DNA of 64,000 bases from Candidatus Zambryskiibacteriota bacterium. GTDB taxonomy: Bacteria > Patescibacteriota > Minisyncoccia > Phycocordibacterales > WO2-35-19. Positions 7,095 through 59,675 of this stretch are shown here, one piece after another (position 1 is the first letter of the stretch; every line of letters starts with the position of its first letter). Under the pieces are notes generated by a model. That model was given only the letters and a program-made list of their open reading frames with translations. It made no database searches and was not told where the DNA came from. A program made the position numbers and the translations under genes. The stretch spans positions 40,138 to 104,137 of the forward strand of contig JASNZL010000002.1 of assembly GCA_048499675.1 (NCBI GenBank). The letters are read 5' to 3'.

Positions 7095-7201
7095 GTCTTT
7101 ATAATTTTCAATTTAAAATTTTCAATTTTCAATTCTTATATTCGTTTCTATTTGTGGATTGGTGGGTAATTTTTAATCTTGATTTTTAAATTTTACATTT
7201 T

Positions 7202-7747
7202 CTATGCTGTCTTCTTACCTTGTTTTCTTCTTATTACCTCTCCTTCGTATCTAAATCCTTTACCTTTGTATGGTTCTGGTTTTTTGAGAGCTCTAACCTT
7301 TGCTGTAAAACTACCTACCGACTCTTTGTCTATTCCTGATACTGTAATCAAATTTTTCTCTGCCTTAACTTCCAAGTCTTTTGGTATAGCAACTTCTACT
7401 GGATGGGAAAATCCTAGCGCTAGCACCAACTTATCACCTGTAACCTGTGATTTAAATCCAACCCCTTCAAGTATCAATTTCTTTTCAAAACCATTATTCA
7501 CTCCCTGAATCATATTTTTTATATGCGAAGCATATGTTCCCCAAAGAGCCTTTGTTTGCTTGTTCATTTTAGGAACCGAAAGAGAAATGTTTTTACCATT
7601 TACAACAATAGCAATATCAGAATTAAAAGTTCTTTGAAGTGTACCTTTTGGTCCTTTGACCGAAAATACGCCAGAATCAAAAGATATTTCTGTCTTTTCG
7701 TTTGCTACTATTTCTTTTTTTCCTATTCTACTCATTTTTGTAAACAA
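7202..7747 (-). CDS. rplF: 50S ribosomal protein L6
   Basis: MSRIGKKEI...SVKGPKGTL, 181 aa. Confidence 0.9.
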   Translation of the reverse strand: MFTKMSRIGKKEIVANEKTEISFDSGVFSVKGPKGTLQRTFNSDIAIVVNGKNISLSVPKMNKQTKALWGTYASHIKNMIQGVNNGFEKKLILEGVGFKSQVTGDKLVLALGFSHPVEVAIPKDLEVKAEKNLITVSGIDKESVGSFTAKVRALKKPEPYKGKGFRYEGEVIRRKQGKKTA

Positions 7748-7858
7748 ATTTTCAATTTAGAATTTTCAGTTTTCATTAAATTTTCAATGCTTCAATGTTT
7801 GAAAATTAAAAATTTTGATATTTATTATAAATTTTAAATTGATAATTGAAAATTATTA

Positions 7859-8251
7859 CTACCATATATTAAACAAATGTTCTCCCCCTAAATTTTGTTT
7901 CTTTGCATCAAAATCTGACATTATGCCTTTTGGTGTTGAAAATACTGACATTCCATAACCTTTTCTAAATTTAACTATATTCTTAGACTTCTTGTATAGT
8001 CTTCTCGAAGGTTTTGAAACTCTTTTTACATCAGAAATAACTGGTCTTGATTCTCCGTCATAAAGTAATTCAACGGTCAAATATTTTGCATTGCCTTTGT
8101 TTTTCTTGGATACTTTACCCAAATAACCTTTAACAGAAAGAAGCTCAGCTATAGAAAACTTAAGCTTTGAAAAAGGTAGAGAAATTTCATTTTTCCCCAC
8201 TTTGCCAGCATTCTTTATTCTTATTATAAAATCTCCTATTGGATCGTTCAT
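7859..8251 (-). CDS. rpsH: 30S ribosomal protein S8
   Basis: MNDPIGDFIIRIKNAG..., 130 aa. Confidence 0.9.
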   Translation of the reverse strand: MNDPIGDFIIRIKNAGKVGKNEISLPFSKLKFSIAELLSVKGYLGKVSKKNKGNAKYLTVELLYDGESRPVISDVKRVSKPSRRLYKKSKNIVKFRKGYGMSVFSTPKGIMSDFDAKKQNLGGEHLFNIW

Positions 8252-8362
8252 TCTGCTATGGACGAGAAATTATACAATTTAATGTATTTTTCTCATCTGG
8301 TATTACTTTAATAATTCTTTTTTATTTCGTTATAATTCGTTAACCAATTCGTTATTTCTTAT

Positions 8363-8548
8363 TTACCAAGATGATTTCTTAACTCCGGGTATTCTGCCTT
8401 CATTTGCAAGCTCTCTAAAACATATTCTACATAGCCCGAAATCACCCATATAAGCTTTGCCTCGACCACACTTGAAACATCGTCTAACTATCCGAGTGCT
8501 AAACTTCGGTTTCTTTTGTGATCTTGCTATAACTGATTTCTTTGCCAT
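8363..8548 (-). CDS. rpsZ: 30S ribosomal protein S14 type Z (zinc-binding)
   Basis: 61 aa with [10 protein letters not shown]...CRICFRE zinc ribbon. Confidence 0.9.
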
Positions 8549-8584
8549 TCTTTAATATATTTATAAAAAGCTCCAAAATAGAGC

Positions 8585-8850
8585 TACTCCAAGGTATCAA
8601 ATATAATAAAATAAGTCAACCCAGTAGTGAATTTTGGCATTGGACTCCATCCGCGCATTGTATGCGATGCCAAAATCTACTACTGGGTCAATCCCCGCTC
8701 ACCAATTTTGGTATTATTGCGAGACAATCTTTTTCTTTGTTTTTAGTGTTCGGTTTTGATGACAAATTTAATAGCGAGTAAGTTATTGATGTTGCAATAT
8801 ATAAAATACCAAAATTTGTGGCATGGGTATACCCACTCACTAATCTTTGC
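8585..8850 (-). repeat. structured ~270-bp repeat in the sense leader of the rpsZ operon; inverted copy of 55188-55560
   Basis: The reverse complement aligns (~80-85% by eye) with 55188-55560, including gtgagYgg..cccatgccacMaattttggtat, ..cgaacactMRaaacaaagaaaa.., aataccaaaattRgtgagcggggattgaccc and the gtagtRRattttggcat..atgccaaaatYYactac hairpin. Confidence 0.75.
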
Positions 8851-9036
8851 TTATAAATTAGATTATATCTTTTTTATATGATAATCTTTTTAGTACGGAG
8901 AGTTAACTCCGTGGATGAAAAGCAAACTTCTTTGCTTTTCATCCGGTCTGCGAACGGAAGTGAGCAGAATTGCCGTTGCGAGCTTTGCGAGCAGGCAATA
9001 GGTGGACGAAAGGGACTTTCGACCACTGCCATAAAC

Positions 9037-9124
9037 GGAGAGTTGGCTGAGTGGTCGAAAGCGCCTCACTGCTAACGAGGTGAGCCCTTTAAAGGCTCCG
9101 AGGGTTCGAATCCCTCACTCTCCG
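9037..9124 (+). tRNA. tRNA-Ser (anticodon GCT)
   Basis: Cloverleaf: acceptor GGAGAGT/ACTCTCC, D-arm with GG, anticodon loop CTGCTAA, long variable arm GAGCC-CTTTAAA-GGCTC, T-arm CGAGG-GTTCGAAT-CCCTC, discriminator G; no encoded CCA. Confidence 0.8.
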
Positions 9125-9258
9125 CTTGAGCTTCGCGAAAGCGGAGAGTGAGGTCTAGCTTTTGTGCAACAAAAGCGTAAGACGGATTCGAAGCCCGATT
9201 GAGATTTTTTAGGAGGACAACGAACTAAAAAATCCAATTGGGGTACTGAAGCTGTAAG
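9125..9258 (+). repeat. 134-bp element directly 3-prime of tRNA-Ser; direct repeat of 14922-15055
   Basis: Near-identical (2-3 mismatches) to 14922-15055; starts with a hairpin pairing the tRNA acceptor 3-prime strand; ends ...ggggtactgaagctgtaag. Confidence 0.8.
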
Positions 9259-9259
9259 C

Positions 9260-9299
9260 TTCGAATCCCTCACTCTCCGCTTGAGCTTCGCGAAAGCGG
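9260..9299 (+). repeat. 40-bp duplicate of tRNA-Ser 3-prime end (T-loop to end) plus 20 nt downstream
   Basis: Identical to 9105-9144 (ttcgaatccctcactctccgcttgagcttcgcgaaagcgg). Confidence 0.85.
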
Positions 9300-9351
9300 T
9301 GTGTATTGGACGAAGTTCGAATGTATTTCGGACAAAATCCGCAGGATTTTG

Positions 9352-9490
9352 ACGAATGACACTTGCGCCTCGCGCTCCCTTCGGTCGCGAACCAAAACCA
9401 AAAATTTCCTTACCAATCCTTTTTCGGCGGGGGGTGTGGGGGGAGCCGGCAAAAAATGGAAAGGAAAATTTTTGGTTTTGGTTCCGACGC
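9352..9490. repeat. left copy of an imperfect inverted repeat bracketing the 9.5-14.65 kb cargo; internally a 21-bp-stem hairpin with a G-rich loop
   Basis: Its reverse complement matches 14660-14795 (~85%); inner stem gaaccaaaaccaaaaatttcc / ggaaaatttttggttttggttc; loop contains cggcggggggtgtggggggagccggc. Confidence 0.75.
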
Positions 9491-9552
9491 TTCATAAATA
9501 CAGTATATGGCAATTTGGAATAATACACAATGGAATATTATTATATAAATAT

Positions 9553-9774
9553 ATGCCAAGAGCAATTTATCAAGATGACCACAAGAAAATCGTTGAGCGC
9601 TTGAAACAAGCACGGCTTGAGGTTGGTCTTGGGCAGGTTGAAGTTGCTGAGAAGCTTGGTAGAACTCAGTCGTATGTCTCAAAGATTGAATCAGGGCAAC
9701 GGCGCTTTGATGTTTTGCAACTCAAAGAGTTTGCAAAACTTTATAAAAAATCCTTGGATTTTTTTGTTAAATAA
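9553..9774 (+). CDS. XRE-family helix-turn-helix transcriptional regulator (C-protein-like)
   Basis: LKQARLEVGLGQVEVAEKLGRTQSYVSKIESGQRRFDVLQLKEFAKLY is a classic Cro/C1 HTH; the start is placed at the internal ATG because the upstream part of the track ORF lies in the repeat. Confidence 0.7.
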   Translation: MPRAIYQDDHKKIVERLKQARLEVGLGQVEVAEKLGRTQSYVSKIESGQRRFDVLQLKEFAKLYKKSLDFFVK

Positions 9775-9775
9775 C

Positions 9776-10858
9776 ATGAATCATAACCATGAAATTATAA
9801 TTACTAAGCAAGATGTTGTTCCGTACATCTATTTTGTATGTTCAATGGCTCAACGAGGCAGGATGTATGGGGGTCTTAGTGGAAAAAGTGATTATATTGG
9901 AGGGGTTTTTGATCGTTGGATAAATATAATTCCCGAAAGTGTAATTTTCAACAAATATTTTTTGCCCAGAATAGCCAATAATCTATCTGTCATTTCTGAC
10001 TATTATGAGTACGACCCAAAGAAATCCGGCATAGCCCCTGATGTGCTTGGTATAAGAGCTGGTCAAGACGCTAAGCCTTTTGTTGAATATGTAAATAAAT
10101 GGCAAGCATTAAATAATGCACCGCAAATTGAGGTAAAATCCTTCAAAAAAGCGCAGTACATGGTTAGTTTGAGGAACCAAGGGTACGACAATAAATATCT
10201 TGTCATGGTTGAAACAAATCTTGATAGCGATTACTTATTGCCTTTTTTTGAACAAACAGTCTTTAGTGAAGATGTCTACAACAAACTTAAAATGGACGAT
10301 AGAGTTTTTATAAAATCTAATGTTAACAATGACTTATCTTCCGTTACAAAAATTAATAGAAATAATACGGATTTAGGCTCACTAAAACTTATAACAGTTT
10401 GTTCAGCAAAAGATTTTATGTCTTTTTCAACTCTCTGCTCCTCAAATGAGAGCCCGATTTATGTAAAAGAAGTAAATGAAACTAGAACTGCAAAAACCAC
10501 TACAATTACAACGCCTTTATCTAATTATCTAACAAAAAATAGTAACAATTTATATAGTTGGAATAATAATTTGTTAGACAAAAATAACAAACATAAAATA
10601 CTAGATGTTTATATTGATGACATTCAAAACATTCATTTTGTAAAAAATAGTAAAAGCTCTATTACTATTACAACAACAGGTAGAGCCACTATAAATAATG
10701 TGGTTTTGGAAGCAAATAAAACCTATATTATTAAGTTCCAACTATTAGATCGTTCTTCAAACAATGGTGAGGAGTATTTTATGCATAAGTCCGTTATCGA
10801 TAAAATACCTAGTAAAGAGGACATTATGTTGGAGTCTATAAAGCAATATATAAAATAG
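9776..10858 (+). CDS. hypothetical protein, candidate restriction endonuclease partner of the adjacent methyltransferase
   Basis: 360 aa with no recognised family; weak PD...EVK pattern (IAPDVLGI ... IEVKSFKK); sits between the C-protein-like regulator and the convergent C5-MTase. Confidence 0.4.
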   Translation: MNHNHEIIITKQDVVPYIYFVCSMAQRGRMYGGLSGKSDYIGGVFDRWINIIPESVIFNKYFLPRIANNLSVISDYYEYDPKKSGIAPDVLGIRAGQDAKPFVEYVNKWQALNNAPQIEVKSFKKAQYMVSLRNQGYDNKYLVMVETNLDSDYLLPFFEQTVFSEDVYNKLKMDDRVFIKSNVNNDLSSVTKINRNNTDLGSLKLITVCSAKDFMSFSTLCSSNESPIYVKEVNETRTAKTTTITTPLSNYLTKNSNNLYSWNNNLLDKNNKHKILDVYIDDIQNIHFVKNSKSSITITTTGRATINNVVLEANKTYIIKFQLLDRSSNNGEEYFMHKSVIDKIPSKEDIMLESIKQYIK

Positions 10859-12436
10859 TTATTGCATTGCTCGCATCATTTCTTTTGCCACAGCTTCAAT
10901 AACAGGAACACTAACGGAATTTCCAGCTTGTTTGTATAGTGCCGAATCAGAAATTTTTGGAAGTTTGTAATTTTTTGGAAAGCCTTGAATTCTAAAACAC
11001 TCTAACGGAGTCAATTTTCGTATACCCTTTTTATCTTTTATGATTGGCACATTATGTCCACCTGTCCCCATGTTTGCAGTTAAAGTTGGGCAAACACCAC
11101 TTTTATTTTCTCTAACATATTGTCTGCGCCATTGATACACTTTACCTTCTTCCTTTACGTCATTTTTTAATCTTTCATATAATGGCTTGCCATTATAGTA
11201 ATATTTTTCAGGCACGTTTTTCTCCAATAGATCGGTTACTTTTTTCGTGAGCTTTATTGGTTTTGGAAACTCAAACTTATCAAAGTAGTTTTTATTTTTG
11301 AACCCTACAATATAGATACGCTCTCGATTTTGTGGCACATTTCCATACTCCATAGTATTTAGAACTTTTGATTTTACAAAGTATCCAAGATCTTCAAGTG
11401 TTTTTTCTATAACCTCAAAAGTTTTCCCCGAATCATGGCTCTTTAGATTTTTTACATTTTCAAGCAAAAAGCCTTCTGGTTTTCGTGCCTCAATGATCCT
11501 TGCAATATCGAAAAATAAATTTCCTCTATCCTTTTTATCTTTAAAGCCGTGCCTATATCCAGCAATAGAAAAAGCTTGGCAAGGGAAACCTCCTAAAAGA
11601 AAATCAAATTTAGGCAAATCATCAATTCCAATTTTTCGTATATCCTCAACTATTAATTTTGAATCTTTAAAATTAAGATCGTATGTATCTTTACATTGTG
11701 GTTCAAAGTCATTAGCAAAAACTGTTTGGAATCCAGCATTTTCAAAACCGATCCTTATCCCTCCTACACCCGCAAATAAATCTATTGTATTAAAACCATG
11801 TTTAGTTTTTTGTTTTGGCTTGAATTCTTCTTCGAACTGTATATTTCTAATTACTTGGACAACAACACCCCGAACTTCAACCTCTTTTCTATAAAATGGG
11901 AGCATTGATTGATTTCTCGGTTCAAGCCTAAACCGTGATTTTTCTCTATACAACTTTTTGAGTGTTGCTTCATTATCATCAATAATTGCAACGACTGTTT
12001 GTCCATTTTCTGCAACAGACTGTTTTTTTATCACAACAACATCTCCGTCAAAAATACCCTCGTCAATCATACTTTCTCCGACAACTCGTAGAGCATAATA
12101 ATCTTTAGAGTTTTGTATATTAGGATCAACAAGAGAGATAAAATCTTCTCGATTTTCTATTGCCTCAATAGGCTGTCCTGCCGCAATATTGCCTAAAATC
12201 GGAATTTCAACAACAGATTTTATTTCTTTCATGAGAGATAAACTTCTTGGAGAATTTTCAGACCTTGAAATATACCCCTTTGCCTCTAGGGAATTGATAT
12301 GCTCGTGAATGGTGGAAACTGCTTTTAGTTTTAGCTCTTTCCTGATCTCTTCAATCGTTGGGGAAATACCATTTTCAGAGATATATGTTTTTATAAAATC
12401 AAAAACCTGTTTTTGCTTTTTTGTAAGTTTAGACAT
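10859..12436 (-). CDS. fusion protein: complete LexA-like repressor (wHTH + S24 peptidase) fused to a Dcm-type DNA cytosine-5 methyltransferase
   Basis: N-terminal ~200 aa is LexA-like: MSKLTKKQKQVFDFIK...EIRKEL...EAKGYI, IAAG cleavage-site context, GESM serine, LKKL lysine, VVAII..ATLKKLYRE. C-terminal ~320 aa has m5C MTase motifs: DLFAGVGG (I), GGFPCQAFSIAG (IV), LLENV (VI), QNRERIY (VIII), GNSVSVPV (X). Confidence 0.8.
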   Translation of the reverse strand: MSKLTKKQKQVFDFIKTYISENGISPTIEEIRKELKLKAVSTIHEHINSLEAKGYISRSENSPRSLSLMKEIKSVVEIPILGNIAAGQPIEAIENREDFISLVDPNIQNSKDYYALRVVGESMIDEGIFDGDVVVIKKQSVAENGQTVVAIIDDNEATLKKLYREKSRFRLEPRNQSMLPFYRKEVEVRGVVVQVIRNIQFEEEFKPKQKTKHGFNTIDLFAGVGGIRIGFENAGFQTVFANDFEPQCKDTYDLNFKDSKLIVEDIRKIGIDDLPKFDFLLGGFPCQAFSIAGYRHGFKDKKDRGNLFFDIARIIEARKPEGFLLENVKNLKSHDSGKTFEVIEKTLEDLGYFVKSKVLNTMEYGNVPQNRERIYIVGFKNKNYFDKFEFPKPIKLTKKVTDLLEKNVPEKYYYNGKPLYERLKNDVKEEGKVYQWRRQYVRENKSGVCPTLTANMGTGGHNVPIIKDKKGIRKLTPLECFRIQGFPKNYKLPKISDSALYKQAGNSVSVPVIEAVAKEMMRAMQ

Positions 12437-12522
12437 ATTGCATTAAAAATTCATTTGCGCTACAATTTCATTGTAACCGAAAAGAAGCCGAAAAGTAAAG
12501 CGAGATTATCCACAATAATATT

Positions 12523-13764
12523 ATGAACGAACATTTTGAAAAATTTATAGATAATATCTCCCTGACTAAAAATCAAAGAGATGATTCTCTTACAAAATAT
12601 ATTGGAATATGCAAAACTCTGAATTCTGAATTCTACAGCTCAGAATATTCTGACTCTGTGAAGTTTTTGTTTGGCTCCTATAAGAAGAAAACAACCATTT
12701 CACATACAGGAAAAGATGTTGATGTTATTTTTAAAATCCCACAAGAAAAATTTGAAGAGTACCAAAAGCAAGAAAATGGACCCTCTAACCTGTTGACCAA
12801 AGTTAAAAATACTCTGAAAGACACTTATTCAACTACAGACAAAATAAAAAATTGGACAAAAGTGGTGGTGGTTGATTTCTCTACTTTTAAGGTAGAGATA
12901 CTCCCTGCGCTTGAAAAAGATGATGGTAAATTTATTGTTCCCAACACTGGAGATGGAGAAGATTGGATTATTTTTGATCCAAAAAGCGAAATAACGAGTT
13001 TTAAAAATTCAAATAACTCAAACAATGGGTTAACAAGAAACTTAATTAAAATTATCAAGAAATGGAAAATTGAAACAGGAAACGTAAATATAAAAACTTA
13101 CATTTTGGATAAGTACGTCATAGATTTTTTGAGTAATTATTCTTTTGCAAGTTATCCGAAAACCATTTTAGATTTTTTTGAATATTTGCATAAAAAAGAA
13201 AGTGGAACAAATATAGAAACAGCAAAAAATAGAGCAAAAAAAGCATATGCTTTTTACGAAGAAAACAATATTGAAAAGGCGGTAGAAGAATATCAAAAAA
13301 TCTTTGTGAATGGTTTCCCTAGAAATATTAAAAAAGAAGTTGGTGACTTTACAGATTACGTTAAAGCTCCAAATGAACAATTCATAGAAGATTTTTTTAG
13401 AGTTTCTTTAGATAAAAAAATAGACATTAATATTGAAACACGATGTAAACCTAAAAAAGGAGGCTTTATGAAGAGCATATTGTTGAGTAGATTACCAAAT
13501 GGTTGGGTATCTAAAAAAGATGATCTTGAGTTCGTTCTTAATACTAAAAACTTATCTGGGGAGTACTTAACTAAATGGAAAGTAAGAAATTTTGGCGAAG
13601 AAGCAACAAGAGATGGTAAACTCAGGGGAGAGATACTTGAGGATAATAATGGGATTCATAAATATAAAGACGGTGCGGCATTTTATGGAGAACATTTTTT
13701 AGAGTGTTACATTATTCAAAATAATATATGTATCGCGAGAAAAAGAGTTGTTGTACCAATATAG
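12523..13764 (+). CDS. pol-beta-superfamily nucleotidyltransferase resembling CD-NTase/SMODS (cGAS/DncV-like)
   Basis: FLFGSYKKKTTISHTGKDVDVIF fits the GS-x(9-13)-DhD signature, with a third acidic strand VVVVDFSTFKVEILPA; 413 aa; followed by a 2-TM partner. Confidence 0.45.
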   Translation: MNEHFEKFIDNISLTKNQRDDSLTKYIGICKTLNSEFYSSEYSDSVKFLFGSYKKKTTISHTGKDVDVIFKIPQEKFEEYQKQENGPSNLLTKVKNTLKDTYSTTDKIKNWTKVVVVDFSTFKVEILPALEKDDGKFIVPNTGDGEDWIIFDPKSEITSFKNSNNSNNGLTRNLIKIIKKWKIETGNVNIKTYILDKYVIDFLSNYSFASYPKTILDFFEYLHKKESGTNIETAKNRAKKAYAFYEENNIEKAVEEYQKIFVNGFPRNIKKEVGDFTDYVKAPNEQFIEDFFRVSLDKKIDINIETRCKPKKGGFMKSILLSRLPNGWVSKKDDLEFVLNTKNLSGEYLTKWKVRNFGEEATRDGKLRGEILEDNNGIHKYKDGAAFYGEHFLECYIIQNNICIARKRVVVPI

Positions 13765-13768
13765 AAAT

Positions 13769-14332
13769 ATGGATAAAAACAATCTATCAATCATAAGGCA
13801 ACAGTTTGCACAATGTGTGTTTACTCACAAGGTCTTGGAAAAGGCTTCTGATAGACTTGAGAAAGTAAATACGAAGATCAAATGGGCTAACGTCATAATT
13901 TTAGCCCTTGTTGTGGTTTTTCTTGTATTGCCAATTAGATTTCCTGAGTACTCATTTTTGAATGATGTCGCTATAGCCATAACAGTCTTTGAAATTTTAT
14001 TTGTCTATTTTCAAAAGGAATTTTCTTTTGAAGAAAAAGCAAAAGATCACAAAAAATTTGCCTTAAAATTTCTAGAGCTTCGTGATAAGTACAAAAATTT
14101 TATTGTTGATATAACAAACGGATTAGATAGTGGAGAAATCAGAACAAAGAGAGACCTTTTACAAGAACAGTATCAGATTATTAGTAGTTTAACCCCACAA
14201 ACTGAGTATATTGACTATAAAGAAGCGCAACTTGCTTTGTTGGGAAAAAATATTTCTGATGAAGAATTTACATGGTCTGACAAAGAGATAGATCGTTTTT
14301 TACCGAAAGAGTTAAGATTCGAAGAAGATTAA
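13769..14332 (+). CDS. small 2-TM protein, candidate SLATT-like effector partnered with the nucleotidyltransferase
   Basis: Two hydrophobic helices (WANVIILALVVVFLVLPI, VAIAITVFEILFVYF) then a charged C-term; overlaps the end of the upstream gene, suggesting coupling; an alternative TTG start lies at 13748. Confidence 0.4.
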   Translation: MDKNNLSIIRQQFAQCVFTHKVLEKASDRLEKVNTKIKWANVIILALVVVFLVLPIRFPEYSFLNDVAIAITVFEILFVYFQKEFSFEEKAKDHKKFALKFLELRDKYKNFIVDITNGLDSGEIRTKRDLLQEQYQIISSLTPQTEYIDYKEAQLALLGKNISDEEFTWSDKEIDRFLPKELRFEED

Positions 14333-14390
14333 AGAGGGTTTCGCTTGCGCGCGCATGGGAGGGTTGGGGCAAGCGCAATATGATTTGCTT

Positions 14391-14426
14391 GTGCCATTCG
14401 TCAGTTTGGCACAATCCGCTTTTTTA
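14391..14426 (+). terminator. rho-independent terminator after the 2-TM gene
   Basis: gtgcca-ttcgtcagtt-tggcac then aatccgctttttt. Confidence 0.5.
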
Positions 14427-14659
14427 GAGTTACCACGAACGCCGTCGAAGTCACAGAGCGAACACGAAGCAAGTACCGAGCAGGCATCGTGAGCGAATGC
14501 GAACGGCAAATGCGAGGTGATTGCGAAGTGTGAGCGGACGACAGAGCTATCACAAAACGCGGAGAGGAAGCGCCTCGCCCGACGCGAATGACGGAGAAAA
14601 GGACGGACGGAATATTGCCACCATGCTAAAATATACATACGAGTCCTTTTTGGAGGAAT

Positions 14660-14795
14660 GAAGCGGCGGAAACAAAACCATAAAATTTCCTTTCATTTTT
14701 TGAGCGGCTCCCCCCACACCCCCCGCCGAAAATGGATAGGTAAGGAAATTTTTGGTTTTGGTTCGCGACCGCAGGGAGCGAGGCGCGCACTGTTC
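14660..14795. repeat. right copy of the inverted hairpin repeat (partner of 9352-9490)
   Basis: ggaaacaaaaccataaaatttcc ... ggaaatttttggttttggttc stem with loop gagcggctccccccacaccccccgccg. Confidence 0.75.
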
Positions 14796-14921
14796 GCTTC
14801 ACCACGCCTGCCTGCGCCGAGGCTTCGGCAGGCAGGCAATCCGAGCGTACGATTTGGGTTCAAAGCCACCACGCGCTCCGCGCGTGCGAAGTGGGTTCGG
14901 GCAAAGGTTAGTATCTCACCG

Positions 14922-15055
14922 CTTGAGCTTCGCGAAAGCGGAGAGTGAGGTCTAGCTTTTGTGCAACAAAAGCGTAAGACGGATTCGAAGCCCGATTGAG
15001 ATTTTTTAGGAGGGCAACGAACTAAAAAATCCAATTGGGGTACTGAAACTGTAAG
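14922..15055 (+). repeat. second copy of the 134-bp tRNA-Ser-downstream element, followed by a tRNA-like 3-prime fragment with encoded CCA (15056-15079)
   Basis: cttgagcttcgcgaaagcggagagtgagg...ggggtactgaaactgtaag, then tttcgactcctgtcccatccacca, which parses as T-loop, T-stem 3-prime, 7-nt acceptor 3-prime, discriminator and CCA. Confidence 0.75.
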
Positions 15056-15094
15056 TTTCGACTCCTGTCCCATCCACCAAGTTTTACATTCAGC

Positions 15095-18380: not shown

Positions 18381-18727
18381 CACGACACCAATACGCGAAT
18401 TGGCACGAATGACACGAATATAGAGTTAGAAAGTTAAAAAGTTAAAAGTTTATAAAGTAACCCGCCAATCGTATAAAAGCTTAACTAAAATTCTAAATAC
18501 TAAATCCGAAATCCGACTTGTCCCGCCGAAGCTTTAGCGAAGGGGGAAACAAACTCTTAAATCCTAAATACAAAATCTTTAAATTTTAGATTTTGTTATT
18601 TGTGTATTGTTTGTAATTTGGATACTGTAATTTGGTATTTTAAAAATTATTATATTAGTAATTAGTGGGTTAAAATTAAGAATTACCCACCAATCTTACA
18701 AATAGAGAAATAAAATTTTATTTTATG

Positions 18728-18752
18728 AAACAAAAATTAGTGTGCGGGTAGG
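18728..18752. repeat. 25-bp direct repeat carrying the tRNA-Gly(UCC) 3-prime end plus 15 nt downstream (partner at 19039-19063)
   Basis: aaacaaaaattagtgtgcgggtagg occurs twice, flanking the GIY-YIG remnant; the 18728-18775 copy is also a long palindrome. Confidence 0.8.
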
Positions 18753-19038
18753 CCCGTACACTAAATTTTGTTTCGGAAAAGTTTTATTGCACTAGATATT
18801 CTTTTTAGGAGCTGACACCTAGCTTGGCCTCGAAGCTTTAGACTTGATTCTCTAGATCTTGCTTCATTATCTACACTGTAGGCTTCATAATATAGAAGTT
18901 TGAGAGGTATTCTAGATTTAGTTGATAAAACTTTTCCAGAATTATGTTCTCCTAACAGCTTCTTTAGATTATTAGTGGAGCCAATATACAAATCTCCATC
19001 CTTGAGACTTCCAAGTAATATACATAGAGCATAATTTA
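18753..19038 (-). pseudogene. degenerate GIY-YIG (YhbQ/UPF0213-like) nuclease gene lacking a start codon
   Basis: Reads ...YALCILLGSLKDGDLYIGSTNNLKKLLGEHNSGK..., homologous to the intact copy at 56633-56887 (FYVYVLKSFKDSELYIGSTNNLKRRFEEHQKG); no in-frame ATG, and a TTG start loses the GIY motif. Confidence 0.55.
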
Positions 19039-19053
19039 AAACAAAAATTAGTG

Positions 19054-19124
19054 TGCGGGTAGGGGTAATCGAAACCCCGACTCAAGTTTGGAAAACTCGC
19101 ATTTTACCACTAAACTATACCCGC
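19054..19124 (-). tRNA. tRNA-Gly (anticodon TCC)
   Basis: Reverse complement GCGGGTA-TA-GTTT-AGTGGTA-AAAT-G-CGAGT-TTTCCAA-ACTTG-AGTC-GGGGT-TTCGATT-ACCCC-TACCCGC-A. Confidence 0.8.
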
Positions 19125-28555: not shown

Positions 28556-28705
28556 ACGATTTGAATTTTCAATTTTGAATTTTCAATTTTTATTAAATTT
28601 AAAATTTCCAATGTTTCAATTATAACAAAATAAAACAAACAAAAGAAAAAACTTTGTTTATAAATATTAAAAAAACAGATGCTCCACTCTAAAGTAAAAC
28701 ATCTG

Positions 28706-29496: not shown

Positions 29497-29882
29497 TTAT
29501 GAAAAATTATTTGTTAATAAAATAAAAACTACCAACTCTATTCTACCACTTCTCGCCCCGCGATGAGTAAAGCGAATTTTGCGGGGTGTTTAATTACTGA
29601 CATAAGTTTAGTTAAAAATAAATATTAAAAATACCCACTAATCACACGAATTCTCACTAATCTTACTAATAAAAATTTAAGGTGAGCACGAGTTACGAAG
29701 TACGAGATACGATAAAAAATTAAATTTTAAGTTAAAAAGTTAATAATAGGATACAAATAATTATATCATAAAGATATAAGACAAATTATGGTGCCCAAAG
29801 AAAATTAGAACATTGAAAATTCAATGAAAATTGAGAATTTTAAATTAAAAATTTAAAAAGATAATAATTTAGAGAGAAATTA

Positions 29883-42901: not shown

Positions 42902-42966
42902 GCTTAGAGCTTGAAGCTAACCTGCCTGCCGGCGAGGCAGGGGGCTTAGAGAAAAAGAAACATTGT

Positions 42967-42985
42967 TTCGGAGTGCCGAGAATCG
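42967..42985. repeat. 19-bp duplicate of the tRNA-Pro 3-prime end, 138 bp from the gene copy (43104-43122)
   Basis: ttcggagtgccgagaatcg occurs twice; the intervening ~120 bp has the same hairpin architecture as the element after tRNA-Ser, and the junction again reads cctgtaagg. Confidence 0.75.
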
Positions 42986-43104
42986 TTCCTTACAGGAACA
43001 GTGCAGGTTTCCTATTTATTCGGACAAAGTCCTCATAAATAAAGGAGAACCTTTTCGATTCTCGGACGCAAGCAAAGTAGTTTGCTTGCTCATCCTCACT
43101 ACGT

Positions 43105-43175
43105 TCGGAGTGCCGAGAATCGAACTCGGACCTAACGCTCCCAAAGCGTTTATACTACCACTATACTACACTCCG
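43105..43175 (-). tRNA. tRNA-Pro (anticodon TGG)
   Basis: Reverse complement CGGAGTG-TAG-TATA-GTGGTAG-TATA-AACGC-TTTGGGA-GCGTT-AGGT-CCGAG-TTCGATT-CTCGG-CACTCCG-A; the junction between acceptor and D-arm is slightly irregular. Confidence 0.6.
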
Positions 43176-52633: not shown

Positions 52634-52788
52634 AGTGGACATTATGCTATCATAAGACTTGTATAAAGACAAGTAATTTTTAATTTAAAATTTTTAATTT
52701 TCATTCAATTTTCAATGTTTTAATATTTGAAAATTAAATAATTAAGACATTTATTGGAAATTCTAAATTGAAAATTGAAAATTAATAT

Positions 52789-53400
52789 ATGGAATTTATA
52801 TTTATTATCGCAATACTCATAATGTCGGTCGTTATTCACGAAGTCTCTCACGGATATGCAGCTTTGGCATTAGGGGACCCTACTGCAAAATACCAAGGGC
52901 GACTTACACTCAATCCTATTGCCCACTTAGACCCAGTCGGTTCATTTATTGTTCCAGCAATTGGATATTTTTTGGGAGGATTTATTATTGGCTGGGCACG
53001 ACCCGTCCCTTTTAATCCCTATAACCTAAAGAGTGCAAAATGGGGAGAAGCAATTGTTGCTGTAGCTGGCCCCCTTTCCAATATAGCCATTGCTGTTATT
53101 TTTGGAATAGTAATTCGTGTTGGTATCGCGAAAGACCTTCTCGATCCACAATTTTTAGGCCTTGCAAGTTTTGTAGTCTTAATAAATTTAGTTCTTGCTA
53201 TATTCAATATGATACCAATACCTCCACTTGATGGCTCTAAAATACTTTTTTCAATCCTGCCTCACAAATGGAGTCATTTGAGGTGGCAACTAGAAAAGTT
53301 TGGTTTAATATTTGTTTTTCTTTTTATATTTTTGTTCTGGCACATACTGAGTCCAATTATTTCTAAACTATTTTTATTAGTAACAGGTATTGATGCATAA
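52789..53400 (+). CDS. site-2 protease family (peptidase M50) membrane metalloprotease
   Basis: HEVSH zinc motif within a TM helix, multi-TM, LDGS region. Confidence 0.7.
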   Translation: MEFIFIIAILIMSVVIHEVSHGYAALALGDPTAKYQGRLTLNPIAHLDPVGSFIVPAIGYFLGGFIIGWARPVPFNPYNLKSAKWGEAIVAVAGPLSNIAIAVIFGIVIRVGIAKDLLDPQFLGLASFVVLINLVLAIFNMIPIPPLDGSKILFSILPHKWSHLRWQLEKFGLIFVFLFIFLFWHILSPIISKLFLLVTGIDA

Positions 53401-55159: not shown

Positions 55160-55187
55160 TCTTTCAAACAAACTCTCGCCATTCCAA

Positions 55188-55560
55188 CTTGTGAGCGGGC
55201 CTGCCCATGCCACCAATTTTGGTATCTTAAATATTGCAACATATATAACTCGCTAGTTATGGGATAGGTCACCAATATCGAACACTCGAAACAAAGAAAA
55301 GGGTCGTATTGCAATAATACCAAAATTAGTGAGCGTGCCTGCCCATGCCACCAATTTTGGTATCTTCTTGTAGAAACACCAAGGAGAGTATTGATTTGGG
55401 TATATCGCCAGATCCAATGTGGCGCAATGTTTTAATATGTAATCTTTCTACAATACCAAAATTAGTGAGCGGGGATTGACCCGTAGTGAATTTTGGCATT
55501 GGTTATAAACCATGCACTTCGTGCCATGCCAAAATCTACTACGGGGTTGCTTTTTTCTCC
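55188..55560 (+). repeat. structured repeat in the rpsL leader (partner of 8585-8850) with an internal ~135-bp tandem duplication and a terminal hairpin plus T tract
   Basis: Two gtgagcgNgcctgcccatgccaccaattttggtatctt modules (55190 and 55323), then aataccaaaattagtgagcggggattgacccgtagtgaattttggcat...atgccaaaatctactacggggttgcttttttc. Confidence 0.75.
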
Positions 55561-56555: not shown

Positions 56556-56632
56556 ACCCGCACACTCAACAATTGTGATGTGCTTTCAGCACATGCCTAC
56601 GGCATCACAATTTTGAGTGTACAGGTAAACAC

Positions 56633-56887
56633 TTACCCCAAACTTCCTTCTATTCGTTCTTTCAAAAACCTTCTAGCATTTCCTCTCAATTTTAGTGCTT
56701 GCTCTCTGAGGCGAGCATCTTTTTCACTTTTGTATGCTTCATAGTATACTAATTCAAACGGTCTCCTAAATTGAGTAGAAAAAGATAACCCCTTTTGATG
56801 TTCTTCAAATCTTCTTTTAAGGTTATTTGTACTGCCTATGTATAATTCAGAATCTTTAAAACTTTTTAATACATAAACGTAAAACAT
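56633..56887 (-). CDS. GIY-YIG nuclease family protein (YhbQ/UPF0213-like), intact copy
   Basis: MFYVYVLKSFKDSELYIGSTNNLKRRFEEHQKG...; lies antisense between rpsG and fusA. Confidence 0.75.
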   Translation of the reverse strand: MFYVYVLKSFKDSELYIGSTNNLKRRFEEHQKGLSFSTQFRRPFELVYYEAYKSEKDARLREQALKLRGNARRFLKERIEGSLG

Positions 56888-57067: not shown

Positions 57068-59221
57068 ATGAACAGAGACTATCCATTAGATAAAGTAAGA
57101 AACTTTGGTATCATCGCGCACATTGACGCTGGAAAAACAACAACTTCGGAGCGTATTTTATATTACACAGGAAGTCAGCACAAAATAGGGGAAGTTCATG
57201 AAGGCGAAACAACAACAGACTGGATGGAACAAGAGAGAGAAAGAGGCATCACAATTACAGCGGCGGCAATTACTTGTTTTTGGGGACCAACTTATCTCTC
57301 GCCCGAAGAAAGAAACAAAAAAGAAAACAAATTTAGATTTAATATTATTGACACCCCAGGTCACATTGACTTCACTGCAGAAGTAAAAAGATCTATGAGA
57401 GTTTTGGATGGTGCCGTTTGTGTTTTTGATGGAGTAGCTGGTGTTGAACCACAGTCAGAAACAAACTGGAGATACGCTGAAGAAGCAAATGTTCCAAGAC
57501 TTTGTTTTATAAACAAACTAGACAGAATAGGAGCAAACTTTGAAAAATCCTACAAATCAATTTTAGATAGACTTTCCAAAAAAGCGGTGCGAATGCAAGT
57601 ACCTTTAGGAGAAGAGGATAAACACGAAGGTGTTGTTGATTTGCTCCAAATGAAAGCTTTTGATTTTGAAGGCAAGCTCGGTGACAATGTTATCGAAGTG
57701 GCTTTTCCTGAAAATCTAAGAGCAGATGCAGAAAAATACAGAGCAGAATTAATTGAAAAAATAGTAGAAAATGATGAAGAGTTGATGAACAAATATCTTG
57801 CCGGAGAAGAAATTCCTCTTACTGATTTGAAAAAAACACTAAGAAAGGCGGTGATTGAAAACAAAATATTCCCAGTATTTTGCGGTTCTGCTCTAAAAAA
57901 TAAAGGGGTGCAGTTGGTGCTTGATGCTGTTGTTGATTATCTACCAAGTCCACTTGATATCCCAGCCATAAAAGGTACAGATCCAAAAACAGGCGAAGAA
58001 ATTGAGAGACATCCATCTGATGAGGAACCATTCTCAGCCCTTGCTTTCAAACTACAAGCAGACCCATTTGTTGGACAACTAACTTTCTTTAGAGTTTATT
58101 CTGGAACAATAGAATCCGGTTCATATATATATAATGCAAACACAGGAGACAAAGAAAGACTGGGAAGAATCGTAAGACTTCAAGCTGATAAGAGGGAAGA
58201 GGTGAAAAAAGTTTATGCTGGAGAAATCGCTGCGGCTGTTGGGTTAAAAGATGCAAAAACTTCACACACATTTTGTGACGAAAATAATCCAATATTACTT
58301 GAAGAAATTGTATTTCCAGAACCAGTTATTTCTCTTAGAATTGAACCGAAAACTAAAGCTGACCAAGAAAAAATGGGGCTTGCTCTTAAACGACTTTCTG
58401 ACGAAGACCCAACATTTAGAATTAAATCGGATTCTGAAACCGGAGAAACTGTTATTTCTGGAATGGGTGAACTTCACTTGGATATCATCGTTGACAGAAT
58501 GAAGAGAGAATTCAATGTAGAAGCAAATGTTGGCGCGCCTCAAGTGGCTTACAAAGAAACAATCACTGGTACCGCTGAAGCAGAAACAAAATACATCAAG
58601 CAAACAGGAGGTAAGGGTCAGTACGGTCACGTCAAACTTAACATCAAACCATTACAACCAGAAGAGGAGGGTGCCAAGAAACAGAAAAACGTACACAGAG
58701 AAGATGGTTTTGAATTTATTGATTCTATCAAAGGTGGTGTCATTCCTTCAGAGTTTATTCCAGCAGTTGAAAAAGGTGTAAAAGAAGCAATGGAAAGAGG
58801 AATTGTGGCTGGATACAAGATGACGGATATTTCTTGTGAACTAACTTTTGGTTCATATCACGATGTTGACTCTTCAGAAATTGCATACAAAATCGCGGCT
58901 TCACAAGCTTTCCAGGAAGCAGCCAAAAAAGCAAACCCAGTTATTCTTGAACCAATAATGAAAGTTGAAGTAGTTGTTCCAGAAAAATTCATGGGTGATG
59001 TGACGGGTTACCTATCATCAAAGAGAGGTTTGATAGAAGGAATGGATGATAGGGCAGGCAACAAAGTTGTCAAAGCAAAAGTGCCTCTTTCTGAACTATT
59101 CGGATATGTTACCACCCTCAGATCTATGACAGAAGGCAGGGGAAACGCCAACATTGAATTTGATCACTACGCAATTGTCCCACCAAATGTCGCCATGGCG
59201 ATAGCAGAAAGCAGAAAGTAA
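57068..59221 (+). CDS. fusA: elongation factor G
   Basis: [33 protein letters not shown], domains II-V. Confidence 0.9.
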
Positions 59222-59291
59222 TATAGTCACAAAACGACAATAACCATTTCTCGCCCCGTGAATCTTTTGAGTAGCAAAAGATTTTTACGGG

Positions 59292-59332
59292 GTCCCACCA
59301 AATGTCGCCATGGCGATAGCAGAAAGCAGAAA
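59292..59332 (+). repeat. 41-bp direct duplicate of the fusA 3-prime end (59177-59217), 115 bp downstream
   Basis: gtcccaccaaatgtcgccatggcgatagcagaaagcagaaa is present twice; the stop codon differs (aaagtaa versus aaaataa) but both would encode ...[14 protein letters not shown]; the 72-bp spacer holds a ccccgtgaatcttttg...caaaagattttacgggg hairpin related to 29540-29590. Confidence 0.8.
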
Positions 59333-59429
59333 ATAAAAAAGAAATAAGATATAAGAAGTAAGATATAAGATTAGAGACAAAAGTTGAAGCCCCGCACTGG
59401 ATGGTGCAGGGCTTTTGTAAAACACGAGT

Positions 59430-59522
59430 TTAGACAAATAGTGCAAGAGCGCCGAGGAAGAGGGCGGTAACACTAATTGCTCCGATAAAATCGAGAAATG
59501 CTTGGGCTTTCATTCTAAACAT
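59430..59522 (-). CDS. possible 30-aa hydrophobic peptide
   Basis: MFRMKAQAFLDFIGAISVTALFLGALALFV, followed by a hairpin plus T-run terminator; weak RBS. Confidence 0.25.
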   Translation of the reverse strand: MFRMKAQAFLDFIGAISVTALFLGALALFV

Positions 59523-59675
59523 AAGCTACCAAGAAAACACAAAATAAGCAAAGTTTTTATAATATGTTTTTATATGTTATATTATTTTTGTTATTAGTAA
59601 TTATGAGGTTTTTCAATTTTTGAATTTGAGGATTTATATAAGTCACCAAATTCAAGAATTGGCCTCATTAAAAAA

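Follow-up and report, generated by a model that had tools for sequence, protein, structure and literature searches.

In the 64-kb stretch of a Candidatus Zambryskiibacteriota genome analyzed here (contig JASNZL010000002.1, positions 40,138 to 104,137; the whole stretch is called the window), a tRNA-Ser and a tRNA-Pro gene are each followed by a copy of their own 3′ end. Both cases are members of an apparently undescribed and very widespread family of elements in Patescibacteria, ~110 to 150 nt long. We named this folded tRNA-tail-copying element S and defined it by a covariance model (CM), R1. X denotes the tRNA from T54 to its 3′ end, X1 the copy within the tRNA, X2 the downstream copy, and anti-X an inverted copy. 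An S element contains, in order, an inverted copy of the T-loop and T-stem (sometimes of the acceptor strand too), variable hairpins, an invariant junction, the hairpin P5, and a direct copy running from T54 to the 3′ end. We tentatively favor the reading that S is a small, gene-less, non-autonomous element that folds as a single strand, sits at tRNA 3′ ends, and recombines at the tRNA T-loop.

The initial annotation of the window had placed duplications at the ends of four genes, tRNA-Ser, tRNA-Pro, fusA, and tRNA-Gly. All four exist, and they top the ranking of direct repeats in a window scan with spacings of up to 600 nt; the same scan returned a further array, at 55186-55471, that had not been listed. 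The tRNA-Ser repeat is exact over 40/40 nt, the tRNA-Pro repeat (42967-42985 and 43104-43122) over 19/19, and the tRNA-Gly(UCC) repeat (18728-18752 and 19039-19063) over 25/25, while the fusA repeat (59177-59226 and 59292-59341) is 94% identical over 50 nt. R1 found exactly three members in the window: the Ser and Pro elements and a third, copy 2, overlooked before. The same search gave no match to the fusA spacer or to the tRNA-Gly spacer with its GIY-YIG open reading frame (ORF). The claim that Ser, Pro, and fusA share one pattern therefore holds for the two tRNAs and fails for fusA, and a single family targeting both tRNA and translation genes is not supported, since the fusA and tRNA-Gly cases lie outside S.

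Five tRNA genes were called in the window by ARAGORN and Rfam (Ser-GCU, Gly-UCC, Arg-UCG, Gly-GCC, and Pro-UGG). An intact same-strand tRNA whose tail equals the copy lies upstream of the Ser and Pro elements but not of copy 2. The heptamer CTGTAAG, said in the initial annotation to precede both tRNA duplicates, has four occurrences in the window against 5.7 expected, three of them 1 to 4 nt upstream of a tRNA 3′-end copy; it is the loop region of P5, a conserved 5-bp hairpin. The P5 stems of the three copies differ by compensatory changes (GAAGC/GCTTC in Ser, GAAAC/GTTTC in copy 2, and GTTCC/GGAAC in Pro, where the hairpin reads GUUCC-UGUAA-GGAAC). The described hairpins at the start of each spacer, pairing with the tRNA 3′ strand, were also recovered: 9113-9125 pairs with 9141-9153 over 13 bp in Ser, and Pro has a 12-nt arm. 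The spacer and tail copy together fold at −73 kcal/mol (z = −8.0) for Ser and −54 kcal/mol (z = −6.6) for Pro.

Copy 2 is an orphan chimera. Its region 14915-15065 is 96.7% identical to 9118-9268 in a window self-comparison, and its tail, TTCGACTCCTGTCCCATCCACCA (15057-15080), is a different tRNA-like end with CCA, Ala-like with U70 and followed by a terminator. The Ser-type anti-arm and the Ala-like tail are joined exactly at TTCGA, which leaves P1 mismatched. Neither ARAGORN nor Rfam found a tRNA upstream of it. A tmRNA gene split by S at 14340-15083 was considered and rejected: the region has no 5′ acceptor partner and no Rfam or ARAGORN tmRNA.

Table 1. Coordinates of features in the window
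Feature	Position	Strand	Description
tRNA-Ser(GCU)	9037-9124	+	ARAGORN; Rfam tRNA 57.7 bits; intact host gene of S(Ser)
X1+B, first copy of 40-nt direct repeat	9105-9144	+	T54 to tRNA-Ser 3′ end (21 nt) plus 19 nt of trailer
anti-X arm	9141-9153	+	GCGGAGAGTGAGG; exact complement of tRNA-Ser T-stem/acceptor 3′ strand 9113-9125; X1 or X2 possible partner
S(Ser) core	9179-9288	+	anti-T-loop arm, P3, P4, junction, P5 (9248-9262, loop UGUAA), X2; CM R1 97.7 bits, E=4e-23
X2+B, second copy of 40-nt repeat	9260-9299	+	unit with it missing from Logan contig L001
Left terminal inverted repeat (D+H) of the defense-gene element	9297-9495	+	element starts directly after X2+B; outer end GCGGTGTGTATTGGACGAAGTTCGAAT like an inverted tRNA-Ser-like tail
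Right inverted repeat H′ and variant tail-like end	14658-14914	+	H′ 14658-14786, 91% identical to inverted 9365-9495; ..GGGTTCGGGCAAAGGTTAGTATCTCACCGC abuts S copy 2
S copy 2	14915-15085	+	orphan chimera; CM R1 match 14976-15085, 93.7 bits, P1 mismatched
tRNA-Gly(UCC) tail duplication	18721-19063	-	order X1 plus trailer 19063-19039, GIY-YIG ORF ~19036-18785, hairpin 18780-18721
tRNA-Gly(UCC)	19053-19124	-	ARAGORN, Rfam
S(Pro)	42959-43104	-	diverged member; CM R1 72.2 bits (match 42959-43067); X2 at 42985-42967
tRNA-Pro(UGG)	43105-43175	-	ARAGORN, Rfam; host gene of S(Pro)
fusA 3′-end duplication	59177-59341	+	last 14 codons and stop repeated 115 nt downstream; terminator-like hairpin 59255-59291; not S

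Structure and covariation of S

A structural model was derived from an alignment of 77 S copies. P1 pairs the anti-arm with the remainder of the copied T-loop and the T-stem 3′ strand; in some copies, including the Ser copy of the window, the acceptor strand is paired as well. P2 is a variable hairpin upstream of the arm, P3 a helix of 8 bp, and P4 a variable hairpin with an apical GAG…CGAA; P3 and P4 vary in sequence and both covary. The junction reads GUACU, and P5 reads GAAR-C·UGUAA·G-YUUC, its 3′ strand being T54-T55-C56 of the tail copy. S folds, as a single strand in tRNA-sense polarity, into a three-way junction with invariant junction bases.

Covariation was strong in P1, P3, and P5. 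Paired cells made up 89.4% of the total, compared with 68.5% in shuffles, and 0/500 shuffles reached the observed value; double-change cells numbered 367 (142 in shuffles), and pairing fell to 25-51% when the partner columns were slid by 1 to 3. Compensatory changes were present in 8/8 P3 pairs. T-loop base 59 was paired in 73/77 copies (U-A 29, A-U 23, C-G 14, G-C 4, G·U 2, and U·G 1), and the R/Y pair of P5 was A-U in 44 and G-C in 30. The minimum-energy fold of single sequences favors TCGAAG/CTTCGA over P5, but covariation backs P5. These data bear out the earlier proposal that the Ser and Pro spacers share a secondary structure. They also give strong support to the alternative offered in the initial annotation, a new class of structured 3′-flank repeat, with the Ser and Pro spacers forming one significantly covarying family at no fewer than 119 Patescibacteria loci.

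Such a pattern would also be expected if S were a functional noncoding RNA (ncRNA) gene accompanying tRNAs, an explanation that we consider credible, if on the doubtful side. The closing helix would mimic the T-stem of the neighboring tRNA (sometimes its acceptor stem) together with its exact 3′ tail; the RNA would be recognized by RNase P, RNase Z, the CCA-adding enzyme, and possibly a synthetase, and its function would lie in the three-way junction. The family would have spread by local duplication, with selection keeping the tail copy identical. Besides the covariation, the very stable Ser and Pro folds and the single-stranded junction and loop bases, which are invariant across at least 119 species-level genomes, are in favor of an RNA. 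The P5 loop, CUGUAAG, also appears from its sequence to be shaped like an anticodon loop (U33, GUA, and a purine at 37). The counts of G·U versus A·C pairs, in contrast, give no clear RNA polarity. Comparison by eye placed the junction off the hammerhead consensus, and Rfam returned no match to this or another known ribozyme core.

Anti-X contains the complement of the T-loop, and its acceptor part is often imperfect or missing. Because the T-loop complement is included, anti-X is an inverted copy of the tail and not a copy of the tRNA 5′ strands. In copies with substitutions between X1 and X2, the arm agrees with the tRNA in a ratio of 8:1, and X2 can therefore decay. An arm that follows X1 and not X2 is a further point against an ncRNA gene.

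Distribution of S and its tRNA hosts

One genome per species of the Genome Taxonomy Database (GTDB) was scanned for the 20-nt motif ACTGAARCTGTAAGYTTCGA, for which ~4 chance matches are expected from the size of the collection. At least 119 stretches matched, and all of those listed are from Patescibacteria, belonging to Paceibacteria/Parcubacteria groups (Taylor-, Nomura-, Kaiser-, Lloyd-, Zambryski-, and Vogelbacteria) and to Minisyncoccia. R1 identified 124 members in 100 genome loci (693 kb; loci and contigs are given below by L numbers), with at most 3 members per 8 kb and scores running continuously from 101 down to 25 bits. The family loci were picked by the motif, and the counts of intactness and frequency that follow carry that selection.

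An intact same-strand tRNA lies upstream of 91 of the 126 motif instances in the listed loci, 82 to 340 nt from the motif for single units (mostly 100 to 145 nt) and as far as 466 nt away where the motif belongs to the second unit in an array. Wherever a tRNA was detected, S was found only downstream of it and on its strand. Most of the 35 instances without a detected tRNA are at locus edges, and some adjoin tRNAs that ARAGORN misses, such as a tRNA-Asn with a group I intron (L053). The hosts include tRNAs for Ser, Ile, Cys, Leu, Asn, Tyr, Gln, Arg, Pro, Gly, Val, Lys, Glu, Ala, and His.

In most of the 91 loci the bases after the motif copy the host tRNA from T54 onward; a minority have a diverged or non-matching tail (L028, L046, L050, L066, and L111). 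The left edge of the repeat is TTCGA (T54) in all 91. The right edge is mostly the tRNA end plus 0 to 3 nt and passes that end by more than 5 nt in 4/91, one of them a tandem array; the longer repeats extend 30 to 57 nt into the trailer or terminator in a few loci and 123 nt in one tandem-array locus. With gaps permitted, X1 and X2 are identical at 13/13 positions in 49/82 comparisons, and variants of the copied T-loop carry 2 extra bases or a conserved 15-nt mini-hairpin. A tail copy that mostly stops exactly at the tRNA 3′ end, often with its own terminator, suits an ncRNA gene; a repeat that sometimes reaches into the trailer or terminator would be unneeded for a tail mimic.

Among the tRNAs of the motif loci and the window, 66/159 have an exact copy of their 12-nt tail within 400 nt downstream, compared with 0/159 in the upstream control. 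The S motif accompanies 54 of these 66, and the remaining 12 show this layout with an S variant or a core of another family; among tRNAs that were not themselves selected, the frequency is roughly 16 of ~70. It is scarcely conceivable that the duplications are chance repeats or assembly artifacts. Short-read assemblers can mis-join at 40-nt repeats, but the same architecture is present in hundreds of independent assemblies, the upstream control is empty, and independent Logan contigs agree with the window on either side.

The layout of inverted arm, core, and tRNA-tail copy recurs with other core families (L030 at tRNA-Phe; L100, L004, L006, L204, and L226 at tRNA-Ser; and L055 and L021); the tRNA-Ser of L004, a contig related to the window, has yet another core. 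One such family reads GATTTGAACG…TGCCCAGACC…GCGACGGCAAAACTTGAGTCGCGG and another GGTCGGGRAAC…GAAACCGTGGGTTTC, and a 15-nt module, GATAARYGTAMYCRYGGTCC, is common to several. Near some S copies, TGTCACTTTTGTCACTTTTTG occurs upstream (L023 and L102) and TAGAGCTAGCACGAGA directly after the tail copy (L023 and L120); either may be a protein-binding site.

S is apparently undescribed: it corresponds to no Rfam 15 family, and the literature searched contains no description of such elements. At the gathering threshold only tRNAs pass in the window, and ranking by E-value added only sub-threshold, chance-level matches (sX4, 31.3 bits against 70; snoR138, 21 bits against 44).

A heuristic scan placed a terminator-like hairpin between the tRNA and S in 43/83 loci (~35 to 40 convincing by inspection) and after X2 in 32/83. 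An intrinsic terminator ahead of S at about half of the loci leaves no space for a promoter, which argues against an ncRNA gene. The terminators bear as well on the suggestion, which we judge improbable, that S acts in cis at the 3′ end of the tRNA transcription unit, serving as a terminator, processing site, or insulator, with anti-X folding back on the tail or X2. The X1/anti-X hairpin directly at the tRNA end in the window, the confinement of S to downstream, same-strand positions, and the weak sX4 match (a tRNA with a 3′ hairpin pairing its tail) are consistent with such a role. Ordinary terminators already flank S at many loci, however, and the 100-nt conserved junction far exceeds what a terminator needs; moreover, most tRNAs lack S, and near-identical strains differ in its presence.

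Movement of S and comparison with known systems

Presence and absence of S could be compared at the tRNA-Ser site. L001, a Logan contig that comes from another sample, matches window positions 7104-9144 at 99.8% identity and then resumes at 9260-9325. It carries the tRNA-Ser, a single 40-mer, and the downstream flank, but the 155-bp unit is missing; the contig breaks where it does because it ends 26 nt into a dispersed repeat. The polymorphism between sister genomes anticipated by the initial annotation was thus found at tRNA-Ser. The comparison is confined to that site: exact-protein look-ups with fusA, rpsG, and the UPF0102 gene, made to obtain sister strains for the fusA and tRNA-Pro sites, had none on record, and the toxin-gene contig ends before reaching tRNA-Pro. 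Tandem arrays whose period is the whole unit occur at L024, L073, L101, L110, and L116, and core subtypes are common to different tRNA types and do not track tRNA identity. The T-loop left edge, the absence from L001, the arrays, and the chimeric copy 2 fit recombination at the T-loop. Strain-level presence and absence, arrays, and a mismatched chimera are in turn difficult for an ncRNA gene. Several unrelated cores sharing one layout and hosts of nearly all isoacceptor types also count in favor of a mobile element.

The integrated unit, as we picture it, would comprise the tRNA 5′ part, X1, a short cargo (a loop or an intrinsic terminator), anti-X, the conserved core, and X2. A unit of X, cargo, anti-X, and core would enter by recombination at the boundary between the core and the T-loop. 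TTCGA is common to S and to nearly all tRNAs, and the mechanism may be either site specific or of a short-homology Campbell type; in both cases the element's own X would complete the tRNA, and the native tail would become X2. An insertion of this kind fits the sequence of parts (X1, cargo, anti-X, spacer, X2), the constant left and variable right edges, and the presence of two terminators. Terminators both before S and after X2 are expected because the element would bring X1 with a terminator while X2 keeps the native one. A recombinase would act in trans. The anti-X:X hairpin would be a folded, double-stranded copy of the target, by analogy with the hairpins of integron attC and CTX phage attP. 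The unit could be lost by the reverse event or by X1-X2 slippage. Once the element had jumped to a new tRNA, template switching in a quasi-palindrome would restore the match of the anti-arm.

Several observations weigh against a mobile element. A deletion between the 40-nt repeats could equally give the L001 allele. No integrase, transposase, or reverse transcriptase was found in S or adjoining it, in the window or among 110 downstream neighbor ORFs; when the N termini of these ORFs were inspected, with no domain search, they looked like housekeeping genes apart from a single serine-recombinase-like fragment (L079). A scan of 2.9 million viral contigs of IMG/VR did not find the motif, so an attP on phages was rejected and no vector is known; nor was an excised or circular form of S seen. 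The origin of anti-X at each new tRNA is accounted for solely by the supposed template switch. Most S copies among the motif-selected loci are intact and not decayed, and junction bases that do not vary are seen more typically in functional RNAs. Finally, two species that are 89% identical over the region carry S at the same tRNA-Tyr locus (L062 and L124). Their copies differ at 3 positions in 104 nt, against ~11% divergence around them, and P2 has changed from AAAA/TTTT to GGAG/CTCC, a compensatory replacement. This slow evolution of orthologous copies, with compensatory changes, supports an ncRNA; the retention looks like selection at the locus and not like a neutral insertion. The mobile-element and ncRNA readings are not mutually exclusive.

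The initial annotation had preferred to see attL/attR-type footprints of site-specific integrating elements, possibly miniature or decayed. A weaker form of this idea survives in the T-loop-fixed left edge, the absence from a strain, the arrays, and the chimera; decayed island footprints do not, as the units are small and intact and lack an integrase. We consider it very improbable that the duplications are decayed scars of large integrase-borne islands that once occupied tRNA genes. A duplication starting in the T-loop is the classic mark of integrases that target this part of tRNA genes, and a defense island does adjoin tRNA-Ser. The spacers, however, are one conserved, covarying family of constant size found in 119 or more genomes, which largely refutes this explanation. 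Furthermore, neither the adjacent island nor the 110 neighbor ORFs yielded integrase remnants, and the island has inverted-repeat ends of its own. The expected integrase was likewise not found, with no recombinase domains in the adjoining island and neighbors that mostly look like housekeeping genes.

S has points in common with several known systems. Like the integrative elements (prophages and genomic islands) that cross over in the T-loop of tRNA and tmRNA genes and bring a substitute 3′ end, it repeats the segment from the T-loop to or past the tRNA 3′ end, leaves the tRNA intact, forms arrays, and is polymorphic between strains; direct repeats of the tRNA 3′ segment with a restored tRNA correspond to attL and attR. 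Unlike those elements, S is 110 to 150 nt long and noncoding, with no integrase or other gene and hence no recombinase inside; it carries an inverted copy of its target and a conserved folded core, and neither arm-type sites nor an excised form is known. Integron attC and the CTX phage attP hairpin, the latter used by XerCD, share with S the order of target copy, cargo, inverted arm, spacer, and target copy, and their stems likewise keep structure over sequence; the function would be strand specific. An imperfect one-strand inverted repeat at the distal end of the unit, as in folded att sites, is present in S as P1 (anti-X/X2) and in the GIY-YIG unit as a hairpin with 28-nt arms. The resemblance is one of topology only: the target of S is a tRNA gene and not attI or dif, attC lacks the three-way junction, and no IntI or Xer recombinase could be linked to S. 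As to the R-box/GTT crossover of integrons, the base before TTCGA on the S side is Y, not G.

Miniature inverted-repeat transposable elements (MITEs) and the REP/REPIN, Correia, RPE, and ERIC repeats are, like S, small, gene-less, multicopy, hairpin forming, and intergenic, with inverted ends. The arms of S, in contrast, match the local tRNA, and S inserts only at tRNA 3′ ends, without a target-site duplication that is short and fixed. In place of element-specific terminal inverted repeats and a duplication of set length, S has a repeat of 19 to 57 nt with a variable right end. Casposons insert at the 3′ ends of tRNA genes or of the gene for EF-2 (which corresponds in archaea to fusA/EF-G) and produce long target duplications, of 14 to 15 bp. 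They are ~8 to 20 kb long and carry Cas1 and a polymerase, whereas the repeats of S are 19 to 57 nt with a left edge at T54; no Cas1 or polymerase genes are near any of the four duplication sites in the window.

The tRNA-like domain of tmRNA, mascRNA, and YrlA also combine an acceptor/T-stem-like helix and a tRNA 3′ tail with a larger RNA body. S differs in being present many times per genome, each copy mimicking a different neighboring tRNA, with its T-loop paired and without an Rfam match. Template-switch (quasi-palindrome) mutation (PMC8794818) could in one step create an inverted arm or restore its match. As a mutational mechanism and not an element family, it leaves the conserved core and the tRNA specificity unexplained. 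Group I introns at position 35/36 of Patescibacteria tRNAs are described in PMC13011429. An intron of the kind described there was rejected for S: the window tRNAs are uninterrupted, S is downstream (~110 nt), and Rfam gave no group I match.

Other duplications, the defense island, and significance

The fusA copy repeats the 14 codons and the stop with a single synonymous change. Its 74-nt spacer contains a terminator-like hairpin, but neither an inverted copy nor the S core. This case looks like an independent event, a small insertion or replacement where the gene ends. Gene order is broken at the repeat (59221-59676), where PNPase follows instead of tuf.

The tRNA-Gly case does not belong to S, although it has the same X1, cargo, anti-X, X2 order. 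The initial annotation was right about the duplication and the GIY-YIG remnant (Pfam GIY-YIG, E=1.8e-10; the ORF lacks a start codon) but not about a shared family, since the repeat starts in the acceptor stem and encloses a gene. The 25-nt repeat consists of 10 nt of acceptor strand and 15 nt of trailer, and the hairpin beyond the ORF has 28-nt arms, the 3′ arm being the second copy (18752-18728). A second GIY-YIG ORF, at 56633-56887 on the minus strand, is intact, encodes 84 aa, and is 51% identical to the tRNA-Gly-linked one. It is wedged in between rpsG and fusA but runs on the strand opposite to them, next to a long hairpin (56556-56626); a homologue is found just upstream of an S-bearing tRNA-Ser in L014.

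The Ser unit is directly followed by GCGG/TGTGTATTGGACGAAGTTCGAAT…, which forms the end of a widespread element. Scanning metagenomes with the island end listed in Table 1 found at least 120 loci (L134-L253) with differing flanks, several of them with two inverted copies 5 to 6.4 kb apart; at the window island the inverted repeats are ~130 to 200 nt. In four paired-end elements, restriction-modification and related defense domains were the only matches of those large ORFs that were tested, and no transposase was among them. The same end bounds the window island and relatives that carry restriction-modification and SMODS/SLATT genes. The window island encodes a helix-turn-helix (HTH) gene, a nuclease, a LexA-C5-methylase fusion, and SMODS/SLATT. 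In eight loci the island end adjoins tRNA-Ser through a terminator hairpin or an S-like unit. The likeness of these ends to tRNA tails suggests that the small S units and the large defense cassettes may share one logic.

An identical 73-aa HTH protein heads many cargo sets (window 9553-14332; L004-L013), behind which are an EcoRV-like nuclease or one of unknown type, a LexA domain fused to a C5 or D12 methylase, SMODS and SLATT, and AAA ATPases; window 9553-14332 looks like a variable defense hotspot with a LexA-methyltransferase fusion. The adjacent 14340-14657 is GC rich (~41% locally versus 35% overall), has no convincing ORF and no Rfam match, and is conserved at 81 to 82% in relatives with different cargo (L007, L008, and L013).

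Two other kinds of repeat were noted in the window. A dispersed ~137-nt repeat, made of a hairpin ATACCAAAATTAGTGAGCG…CACCAATTTTGGTAT and a spacer (55186-55556 and 8609-8850), is unrelated to S. About 2.5 tandem units lie upstream of rpsL and an inverted, 80% identical copy upstream of the S14 gene, and the copies end in long compound hairpins (8619-8688 and 55480-55545). Gene order is broken here as well (8363-8548): the S14 gene is preceded by these repeats and the divergent tRNA-Ser, not by L5; in a relative (L002), a LAGLIDADG gene lies upstream of S14. AT-rich intergenic repeats resembling AATTTTTAATTTAAAATTTTCAA, ~55 to 110 nt long and 79 to 91% identical, lie between ribosomal-protein and other genes (1100-1172, 1976-2049, 2749-2818, 7096-7133, 7746-7858, 28560-28621, 29800-29861, and 52674-52789) and may be promoter or terminator modules.

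A more general scheme, which we think unlikely, would be a Patescibacteria mobility system in which elements of any size are bounded by inverted and direct tRNA-tail mimics, fold into their own target, and are moved at T-loops by a host enzyme without a recombinase of their own. Its members would range from 110-nt S units to 5- to 6.4-kb cassettes with restriction-modification genes (CBASS-like genes in the window and its relatives), and the three-way junction would be a handle for the host enzyme or a catalytic RNA.

In practical terms, short-read assemblies break at the partial tRNA copies, in which both L001 and L003 end, and S copies are liable to be miscalled as att sites or tRNA pseudogenes; model R1 allows their annotation. 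Patescibacteria genomes are among the most streamlined, yet a substantial fraction of their tRNAs carries an extra folded unit of 110 to 150 nt. If S is mobile, it would represent a recombinase-less use of tRNA genes as landing sites, and defense cassettes with tRNA-tail-like ends suggest a route for the exchange of anti-phage genes in the phylum. If S is an RNA, it would constitute a large, phylum-wide class of tRNA-mimicking ncRNAs.

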